A stretch of DNA of 64,000 bases from Methylotenera sp. (GTDB lineage Bacteria > Pseudomonadota > Gammaproteobacteria > Burkholderiales > Methylophilaceae): NCBI GenBank assembly GCA_044222005.1, contig JBGANY010000002.1:82426-146425 (forward strand), in the 5' to 3' direction. Of this stretch, positions 32,772 to 35,362 are shown piece by piece. Positions within the stretch are counted from its first letter, which is position 1, and each line of letters opens with the position of its first letter. Under the pieces are notes generated by a model. It was not told the DNA's origin, did not search any database, and saw only the letters and a list, made by a program, of their open reading frames with translations. The translations under genes and the position numbers were made by a program.

Positions 32772-32829
32772 TTGCATTATTTACAATAATATTTTATAAT
32801 TATGTAAATTTTACATAATTATAAAATAT
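32772..32829 (+). promoter_or_regulatory. Putative sigma-70 promoter overlapped by a perfect 41-bp palindrome (candidate operator)
   Basis: -35 TTGCAT at 32772-32777, a 17-nt spacer, and a perfect -10 TATAAT at 32795-32800. The palindrome spans 32789-32829 with 20-bp arms around t32809 and runs into the ATG at 32828. Confidence 0.6.
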
Positions 32830-34420
32830 GTCACTTGGTAATTTTATACGTCAGCGACGCAAATCGCTGAATATCACACTGCAAACACTTGCTAACCAAG
32901 TGGATGCGGACGCCGGTAATTTATCGCGCATCGAGCGCGGCGAATTAGGTATTAACGAAACCTTGCTGCGCAAAGTGGCGGCAGCGCTCGACTGTACGCC
33001 GGCATATTTATATGCGCAAAGCGATGCGCCTCTGGCACAATTAACCGCACAGGAAAATCGGCAGCCTTATCTCGTCAACCCGTCGCAAACCAACAACACA
33101 AAAGACTTCGTGCAGTGGTTTCGCTCTGCTACCCCCTATATTCACGCATTTGGCGGCCGCACTTTTGTGATTGCGTTTGGCGGCGAGGTGGTCGATGAAA
33201 AACAATTTATCGCACTTTCGCATGATTTGAATCTGCTCGCCAGCCTGGAAGTCCGGCTGGTGCTGGTGCATGGCGCGCGTCCGCAGATTGAGCAGCGCTT
33301 AAAACGTGCCAAACTCACGCCCACGCTGCACAACGGTTTACGTGTGACCGATGACGAGGCGATGGAGATCGTCAAAGAAGCCAACGGCGCGGTGCGCGTA
33401 GAGATTGAAGCACTGCTATCGATGGGTATTGCCAACTCGCCGATGGCAGGCGCTGACATTCGCGTGGCGAGCGGCAATTTTGTCACCGCCAAGCCGCTTG
33501 GCGTGCGCGATGGCGTTGATTTGCAGCACACAGGCGAAGTACGCAAGGTTGATGCTGTGGGCATTCAAAAGCGCTTGGACGACAGCGAACTGGTACTGCT
33601 CTCCCCGCTTGGATATTCGCCCACAGGCGAGGCGTTTAACTTAAGCCTGGAAGATGTGGCTGTTAGCACCGCGATCGCGCTTGATGCGGACAAGCTCATT
33701 TTTTTAATGGATAGTGAGGGCGTGCATAATTTACGCGGTGAATTATTGCGCGAAATGACCACAGAAAAAGCCAAAAATTTATTACACAACTTGCAAAATA
33801 ACGATGCGCCGATAAACGTTTCAGAGGATGTGAATTACTACTTGCCAGCCGCAGTGCGCGCCTGCGAGCAAGGCGTAGCCCGCACGCATCTGATTTCACG
33901 CCATATTGATGGCGCCATCATTCAAGAACTGTTTACCCATAACGGCATTGGCACAATGGTGACGGAACAATCGCTGGAAACCATGCGCCAAGCCAATATT
34001 GACGATGTGGGCGGCATACTCATACTCATCGAGCCGCTTGAAAATGAGGGGTTTTTAGTACGCCGCGGACGCGAACGTATCGAGACGGATATCAACCATT
34101 TCTATGTGATGGAGCACGATAACCGCATCATCGGCTGTGCGGCTCTGCACCCATTTGTATCTGAAGGCATGGCCGAATTTGCCTGCTTGGCGATTGACCC
34201 GACCTACAGGGGCGGCGGACGCGGCGATAAGCTCTTTAACTACTGCCAGAATCAAGCGAAAGAGTTGGGATTCAGGCACCTGTTTTGCCTGACTACGCGC
34301 ACCGAACAATGGTTTTTAGAGCGCGGCTTTGTTGAAAAACCTATTGAAAGCCTGCCACAAGAAAAGCAACAGCTTTACAATTTTCAACGGAGATCTAAAG
34401 TATTTGTTAAAACACTTTAG
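32828..34420 (+). CDS. argA: N-acetylglutamate synthase (AAK + GNAT) with an N-terminal XRE-type HTH domain fusion
   Basis: Residues 1-64 are an HTH_XRE pattern (NFIRQRRKSLNITLQTLANQVDADAGNLSRIERGE). A linker runs to about residue 91. From DFVQWFRSATPYIHAFGGRTFVIAFGG onward the protein is colinear with E. coli ArgA to the C terminus (QQLYNFQRRSKVF). Confidence 0.9.
   Translation: MSLGNFIRQRRKSLNITLQTLANQVDADAGNLSRIERGELGINETLLRKVAAALDCTPAYLYAQSDAPLAQLTAQENRQPYLVNPSQTNNTKDFVQWFRSATPYIHAFGGRTFVIAFGGEVVDEKQFIALSHDLNLLASLEVRLVLVHGARPQIEQRLKRAKLTPTLHNGLRVTDDEAMEIVKEANGAVRVEIEALLSMGIANSPMAGADIRVASGNFVTAKPLGVRDGVDLQHTGEVRKVDAVGIQKRLDDSELVLLSPLGYSPTGEAFNLSLEDVAVSTAIALDADKLIFLMDSEGVHNLRGELLREMTTEKAKNLLHNLQNNDAPINVSEDVNYYLPAAVRACEQGVARTHLISRHIDGAIIQELFTHNGIGTMVTEQSLETMRQANIDDVGGILILIEPLENEGFLVRRGRERIETDINHFYVMEHDNRIIGCAALHPFVSEGMAEFACLAIDPTYRGGGRGDKLFNYCQNQAKELGFRHLFCLTTRTEQWFLERGFVEKPIESLPQEKQQLYNFQRRSKVFVKTL

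Positions 34421-35362
<942 letters not shown>

Follow-up and report, generated by a model that had tools for sequence, protein, structure and literature searches.

Trigger enzymes and enzyme-repressor fusions such as the biotin ligase/repressor BirA, PutA, and NadR are the textbook examples of direct coupling between a metabolite and a gene, and few such cases are known. Here, we analyzed a candidate of this type, HTH-ArgA, in which a helix-turn-helix (HTH) DNA-binding head is joined to the N terminus of N-acetylglutamate synthase (NAGS, encoded by argA). The gene lies at positions 32828..34420 on the forward (+) strand of a 64,000-nucleotide stretch of a Methylotenera sp. genome (assembly GCA_044222005.1, contig JBGANY010000002.1, positions 82,426 to 146,425), hereafter referred to as the window. 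We propose, at a probability of about 0.68, that HTH-ArgA is a bifunctional trigger enzyme, namely an arginine-inhibitable NAGS that doubles as the repressor of its own promoter, most probably in its arginine-bound state.

The trigger-enzyme concept has been discussed for PepA and PyrH (PMC6245113). HTH-ArgA shares with trigger enzymes the combination of a pathway enzyme and a DNA-binding domain in one polypeptide, and its predicted target is a gene of its own pathway. However, it differs from them in its enzyme, its DNA-binding fold, and its predicted operator; its ligand site would be an allosteric feedback site, whereas that of BirA is the active site; and the dual function of HTH-ArgA is predicted from sequence.

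Classical ArgA is represented by Neisseria gonorrhoeae NAGS (ngNAGS; 2R8V and 3D2P) and Escherichia coli ArgA. The arginine site of NAGS consists of the loop E-(L/I)-(F/M)-(T/S)-x-x-G-x-G-T together with ngNAGS K201 and E270, and it abuts the C-terminal part of the N-terminal helix (PMC4490483). In ngNAGS, arginine shifts this helix, contracts the D3 hexamer by ~20 Å in the direction of its three-fold axis, and broadens the ring by ~10 Å, and the E. coli NAGS hexamer is stabilized by arginine and N-acetylglutamate (PMC4490483). HTH-ArgA resembles these enzymes over residues 88-530, where it gives an equivalog match and keeps the arginine site, but it carries ~90 extra N-terminal residues, comprising the DNA-binding head and a linker, on the mobile N-terminal helix.

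With phage CI/C2-type repressors (P22 c2, lambda CI, and 434), HTH-ArgA has in common the type of head, a flexible linker, an oligomerizing body, and paired dyads over the promoter. In contrast to these repressors, a whole metabolic enzyme takes the place of the self-cleaving S24 dimerization domain; RecA-type induction is not possible, so that a metabolite would be the input. The likeness to the arginine repressors ArgR/AhrC is a functional analogy only, based on a hexamer, one arginine site per subunit, and arginine-responsive DNA binding, the first and last of which are predicted for HTH-ArgA. There is no homology between the two, and the 13-bp dyad and 30-bp spacing found here are unlike ARG boxes, with a predicted regulon of one promoter.

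Domain structure of HTH-ArgA

ORF calling, domain profiles, and homologue matches defined HTH-argA as an open reading frame (ORF) of 530 aa plus stop. Its ATG is located two codons past an in-frame TAA, so a longer reading is impossible. Pfam profiles matched HTH_3 at residues 7-61 (30.9 bits, cut-off 23), AA_kinase at residues 112-357, and GNAT at residues 416-503, and the NCBIfam ArgA equivalog NF003641 matched end to end over residues 88-530 with 687 bits (cut-off 344); TIGR01890 scored 578 bits. The ESM Atlas contains one cluster, of 53 members, with this domain set. The public annotation of the protein reads only "amino-acid N-acetyltransferase", so its regulatory half has been overlooked.

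The protein was divided into four parts, all encoded on the + strand: a lambda-repressor-like HTH domain (residues 1-65, 32828..33022), a low-complexity flexible linker (residues about 66-90, 33023..33097), the amino-acid-kinase-like domain of ArgA (residues about 91-380, 33098..33967), and its catalytic GNAT acetyltransferase domain (residues about 381-530, 33968..34417). In an AlphaFold2 model of the full monomer, based on an alignment of 31 family sequences, residues 3-65 form a five-helix bundle with a per-residue confidence (pLDDT) of 81-90, or 81-95 when the shorter model described below is included, residues 67-96 in the linker fall below 50, and the ArgA body beyond is confidently folded. 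The first-pass annotation of this DNA had read a 530-aa ORF with an XRE-type HTH at residues ~1-64, a linker of ~27 residues, and a classical ArgA from residue ~92, and had called for a search for HTH, AA_kinase, and GNAT domains. All three domains were matched in the single ORF, and Pfam, NF003641, and AlphaFold2 place the boundaries within a few residues of those proposed.

The assignment of the N terminus to the XRE/Cro-CI class, also made in that annotation, agrees with the above-cut-off HTH_3 match and with the structural comparison. A second model, covering residues 1-130, superposed on the DNA-bound P22 c2 head (2R1J, 3JXB) with a root-mean-square deviation (rmsd) of 1.0 Å over 61 columns and 36% identity, and it also superposed on the heads of SinR and DdrO, likewise at 1.0 Å, and on those of 434 Cro and C.AhdI. 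P22 c2 was the best solved sequence match as well (E-value 5e-4). The HTH itself is formed by helices 2 and 3 (residues 18-24 and 29-36). Out of 1.84 billion representatives searched, the nearest non-ArgA relatives of the head were proteins of 210-240 aa with 44-48% identity, and Peptidase_S24 was also present in five of the six that were scanned. Because these relatives carry both HTH_3 and Peptidase_S24, we regard them as CI/LexA-type repressors. Most likely, the head was taken from a repressor of this type, with the ArgA body in place of the S24 oligomerization domain.

Across 72 family loci, the segment GNLSRIERG, with which the recognition helix begins, hardly varies and reads GNLSR(I/M)ERG. 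The ratio of nonsynonymous to synonymous substitution (dN/dS, Nei-Gojobori) was 0.17 for the head, compared with 0.07 for the amino-acid-kinase-like domain and 0.09 for the GNAT domain, and the head is thus under purifying selection. The linker gave a rough dN/dS of about 1.1, as it is poorly alignable. The linker thus evolves freely: its length and composition vary among family loci, and pairs of linkers are on average 17% identical. Between 68 and 114 aa separate the start from the first ArgA helix motif in the family, and the linker is almost lacking in OM43-type members.

As had been supposed, the body is that of a classical ArgA of the arginine type. It matched ngNAGS 2R8V with an E-value of 1e-88 over residues 86-528, and the model agreed with arginine-bound NAGS 3D2P at a TM-score of 0.86 and an rmsd of 3.6 Å. 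The arginine-site loop is present as ELFTHNGIGT at residues 367-376, and K289 and E367 align to ngNAGS K201 and E270; the loop and both residues are invariant in the 31-sequence family alignment. These elements lie in the amino-acid-kinase-like domain together with the N-terminal helix (residues 91-108 in the model), and the head and linker join the N-terminal end of this helix, which adjoins the arginine site. It is therefore plausible that arginine alters the presentation of the six heads or the number of them that stay together.

Distribution of the fusion in Methylophilaceae

We then examined how widely the fusion is conserved. Of the 24 other genomes of the genus Methylotenera, 20 gave full-length matches free of stops, spanning residues 1-3 to 530, and the remaining four gave contig-end fragments or no match. 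Across the family, ArgA was matched in 149 of 151 sampled Methylophilaceae genomes and in all 41 genera (41/41), mostly from residue 1-4 to about 530. The fusion is also kept in complete, streamlined genomes of 1.2-1.4 Mb (Methylopumilus-type), at 40-57% identity. Named full-length records include Methylotenera, Methylobacillus flagellatus, M. glycogenes, M. arboreus, Methylovorus menthalis, Methylophilus methylotrophus, Novimethylophilus kurashikiensis, and Candidatus Methylopumilus universalis.

In 16 other families of the same order, by contrast, ArgA matches begin at about residue 72-94, and records such as those of Sulfuricella, Thiobacillus, and Gallionellaceae match in the ArgA part only. 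Ten outgroup N termini that were read directly start 8-25 residues before the conserved FVxWFRxAAPYI helix. No full-length fusion was detected outside Methylophilaceae in the contig scan of sampled genomes. A search of representative sequences returned mostly fragments and was uninformative on spread, because full-length fusions are probably clustered under unfused ArgA representatives. Independent fusions with an unrelated HTH may occur outside the family. Based on the family-wide full-length matches and the ArgA-only matches elsewhere in the order, the fusion is an ancestral, retained character of Methylophilaceae.

The earlier reading had regarded the fusion as obligatory and had advised a survey of ArgA architectures and a check for a stop or start that separates a small XRE gene from argA in related genomes. 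No such split was seen: the reading frame is uninterrupted in nearly all sampled members of the family, and an assembly or frameshift artifact is ruled out by the intact fusion in about 140 genomes. The suggestion that the architecture is uncharacterized also stands, as full-text literature searching found no description of an HTH-NAGS fusion, and neither "helix-turn-helix" nor "fusion" is mentioned in a review of this enzyme family from 2015 (PMC4490483). The fusion is therefore a real, conserved, and apparently uncharacterized enzyme-repressor architecture.

Paired operator-like dyads at the argA promoter

A consensus scan upstream of HTH-argA predicted a -35-like hexamer, TTGCAT (32772-32777, +), followed after 17 nt by a -10 box, TATAAT (32795..32800, +), with 10 of 12 positions matching; transcription is predicted to start near 32807. 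Comparison within the family revealed two operator-like dyads around these elements. The proximal dyad O1 (TGTAAATTTTACA; 32803..32815, +) lies between the -10 box and the ATG, and the distal dyad O2 (TGCATTATTTACA; 32773..32785, +) overlaps the -35-like hexamer. Their centers are 30 bp apart, and two dyads three helical turns apart over a core promoter are a classical cooperative-repressor layout. The exact form TGTAA-N3-TTACA, to which O1 conforms, occurs just three times in the 2.08-Mb genome.

To describe the sites across the family, we used 72 argA upstream regions, in which the flanks are largely unalignable between genera, and defined the dyad as a 13-mer, TG-N9-CA, with an A/T center. 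The dyad was present at -33..-23 in 51 of the 72 loci. A second copy was found 29-31 bp upstream of the proximal one in 39/72, at exactly 30 bp in 26. The same criteria, applied to 2005 upstream regions of the Methylotenera genome, were satisfied by a single site in 29 and by a pair in 2, and no TG-N9-CA dyad was found in the 10 scored argA upstream regions from outgroups with unfused ArgA. Of 110 sites, 106 had a pyrimidine at position 3 and 108 had a purine at position 11, neither of which was required by the filter; the half-site is therefore TGY and the dyad TGY-N7-RCA. The base at position 3 also tends to follow the residue before GNLS in the head, with TGT in 70% of cases when this residue is Ala and TGC in 71% when it is Ser or Thr. 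A conserved TGY-N7-RCA pair is thus found at the argA promoter only in fusion-bearing genomes, as a putative operator.

The -10 box and O1 are both contained in a perfect palindrome of 20+1+20 nt (32789..32829) that ends in the start codon. This palindrome, which the first-pass annotation had pointed out upstream of the gene, is real, with arms that are 100% complementary. In a 97%-identical relative (L002, 1460-1502), the 20/20 symmetry is kept by compensatory substitutions: the -10 box has become TATATT and the mirror base has changed with it. As RNA, the palindrome would fold at -16.4 kcal/mol (z = -7.1) into a hairpin that covers the start codon, and such a hairpin would form only in read-through transcripts from rsmE. 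Across genera, only the 13-bp core is conserved and the long hairpin is not.

Scope of the predicted regulation

To determine how far the predicted regulation extends, we scanned the whole genome for exact dyads, dyads with one mismatch, hits to a position weight matrix (PWM), and dyad pairs, and also inspected the regions upstream of arg genes. A good pair of sites was found only at argA, apart from one other intergenic pair with 30-bp spacing (C24:130874), which lies among NtrC-like TGCAC..GTGCA sites and was set aside. The 680-bp intergenic region concerned (C24:130445-131124; L137, 1645-2325) precedes a gene for a 325-aa secreted protein and contains palindromes resembling NtrC sites.

PWM hits of at least 18 were obtained in 6 of 1998 upstream regions, namely those of argA, nirB, an aspartate transaminase gene, argH, and a divergent ompW/endonuclease-family pair that shares a single site. 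The argH site (AGTAATTTTTACA; C19:89549-89567, L058) scored 18.7 and directly follows a -10-like TATATT. Of 23 genus members, 13 retain the site, and the other sub-clade reads CGAA(A/T)ATTTTCA there. No operator-like site was found by the dyad and PWM scans upstream of argC, argD, argF-argG, argJ, or carA in this genome. A wider arg regulon is thus unsupported, as argH was the only arg gene beyond argA to score, and only in one sub-clade. Our data support, at the level of predicted sites, a single target, the argA promoter itself, and suggest autoregulation rather than control of the whole pathway.

Several other matches to the dyad were noted. Operator-like high scorers lie upstream of nirB (C11:123505) and the aspartate transaminase gene (C12:1151), and two more are inside metW (C10:33620 and C10:34110). 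In five genomes of other genera, exact TGCGT-N3-ACGCA cores outside argA occur in repeats resembling repetitive extragenic palindromes (REP-like repeats) or next to genes of unrelated function, namely those for DoxX, acetyl-CoA synthetase, and phosphoglucomutase. Genome G077 has REP-like repeated hairpins at three loci (L223, L227, and L234) with the core GGTGCGTAAAACGCACC, which mimics the core of its own argA operator.

The genome encodes the ornithine acetyltransferase ArgJ (C9:58780-59958, located about 23.6 kb upstream of where the window begins); therefore, the pathway is probably cyclic and ArgA is probably only its anaplerotic entry, a role that fits tight self-limitation.

We also searched for ArgR. 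By profile search, Arg_repressor_C was not found in 61 Methylophilaceae genomes, nor in 121 genomes (84 genera) of the whole order, and the Arg_repressor N-domain was not found in five complete genomes of the family; in the control for these searches, 8-9 of 14 genomes were matched. HTH-ArgA itself did not match PF01316 or PF02863. Since ArgR was not found order-wide, there is no family-specific loss to compensate, which weakens the idea that the head replaced ArgR. The lineage thus appears to have been without ArgR before the head was gained, making the fusion an innovation and not a replacement.

Proposed mechanism and alternative explanations

In HTH-ArgA, an enzyme and a DNA-binding domain share a single conserved polypeptide chain, which is the architecture of a trigger enzyme. 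The earlier idea of an enzyme-regulator gains indirect support from the dyad pair, which, at the argA promoter, was seen only in the presence of the HTH. In the mechanism that we propose, the kinase-like ring domain would replace the oligomerization domain of a phage CI/C2-type repressor, and the HTH heads would hang by flexible linkers from the N-terminal helices of a D3 hexamer ring. The heads would pair and bind the two 13-bp dyads, O1 immediately behind the -10 box and O2 across the -35 box, and this binding would repress the promoter and with it, in this genus, probably both argA and argB. We consider such autorepression likely.

Gating of this binding by arginine, for which the behavior of ngNAGS and E. 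coli NAGS provides the analogy, is plausible, although we rate it below even odds. Arginine would strengthen DNA binding, so that catalysis and transcription would both be turned off through one ligand site. Likewise below even odds is the full form of this proposal, in which the allosteric feedback site is also the corepressor site: arginine would inhibit catalysis, move the helices, stabilize the hexamer, pair the heads on O1 and O2, and shut argA(-argB), a logic like that of ArgR that would have arisen independently, in an order whose sampled genomes yielded no canonical ArgR.

Several points count against this interpretation. We infer both the DNA binding and the arginine effect from comparison with homologues and from the predicted sites. 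A disordered linker of 25-45 residues would blunt the transmission of ring geometry to the heads, so that oligomer stability or avidity may be the only route for an arginine effect. The distal site overlaps in part with a -35-like TTGCA and has decayed to a half-site in about 45% of loci, and the counts overstate independence, given A/T-rich sites and loci that share descent. The co-variation between head residue and dyad base is suggestive, a tendency that is confounded by descent. Finally, the extended symmetry of the 41-bp palindrome lies outside a model of head dimers on 13-bp operators and is not explained by it.

Some of these points would fit a simpler form of autoregulation, in which the oligomer binds its own promoter to an extent set by how much of it is present, so that enzyme levels stay low and steady and no ligand acts on DNA binding. 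With ArgJ in the genome, ArgA would probably just prime the acetyl cycle, for which the need is small and constant; the sites are found only at the gene's own promoter; and the long disordered linker speaks against tight allosteric coupling. However, the OM43-type members are nearly without that linker, and the arginine site adjoins the helix that bears it. Since the ring of the homologues is reshaped and their hexamer stabilized by arginine (PMC4490483), an effect on head pairing would be hard to avoid, and we consider purely arginine-independent autoregulation rather doubtful. It is unlikely, and more clearly so, that HTH-ArgA serves as a functional substitute for ArgR over several arg genes. 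The failure to find an ArgR domain in the family genomes and the argH site behind its -10-like box would suit a pathway-wide repressor, but no site was found at argC, argD, argF-argG, argJ, or carA of the same genome, the argH site is missing from one sub-clade of the genus, the exact cores seen in five other genomes belong to REP-like repeats or neighbor genes of unrelated function, and ArgR was not found in the genomes sampled across the order either.

A very improbable reading is that the head has lost its DNA binding or is used for contacts with proteins, and that the palindromes are the sites of a different regulator or form a hairpin, as RNA or DNA, by which translation of read-through transcripts is blocked. 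The stable fold over the start codon and the compensatory changes that preserve the extended symmetry speak for this reading. Yet the recognition segment is nearly invariant and the head is held at a dN/dS of 0.17 across the family, including its minimal genomes, conservation across genera is confined to the 13-bp core, and no dyads accompany headless argA in the scored outgroup regions.

A bifunctional, self-repressing HTH-ArgA would thus place a phage-repressor head on a well-studied allosteric hexamer. Because both arginine-bound and arginine-free structures of a homologue are known, gating of DNA binding by ring movement is directly testable. If true, HTH-ArgA would be the first candidate arginine-responsive transcription factor for Methylophilaceae, which are abundant freshwater and marine methylotrophs and include the OM43/Methylopumilus lineage.

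Gene neighborhood of argA

The acetylglutamate kinase gene argB (34478..35362, +) begins 57 nt downstream of argA, and TIGR00761-type ArgB paralogue matches adjoin argA in the genus. No terminator-like site was found in the 57-nt gap, and co-transcription of argA and argB is therefore probable here. The adjacency is kept in genera g1, g39, and g42 and not in g18, g33, and g54, so that the argA promoter probably drives argB as well in Methylotenera and in two other genera.

Upstream, the spacer between rsmE and argA contains an additional gene in one outgroup metagenome-assembled genome (L197). A 61-aa ORF beginning MPYVNIRI (1478-1663) is 4-oxalocrotonate tautomerase-like and not an HTH, and argA is unfused there; this locus was therefore rejected as an outlier of the fusion, and the spacer is a site of gene insertion. 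The start region also differs among genera: no Shine-Dalgarno sequence precedes the HTH-argA ATG in Methylotenera (32800-32830 in the window), and other genera have AGGA, GGAG, or AAGGTG at the usual distance.

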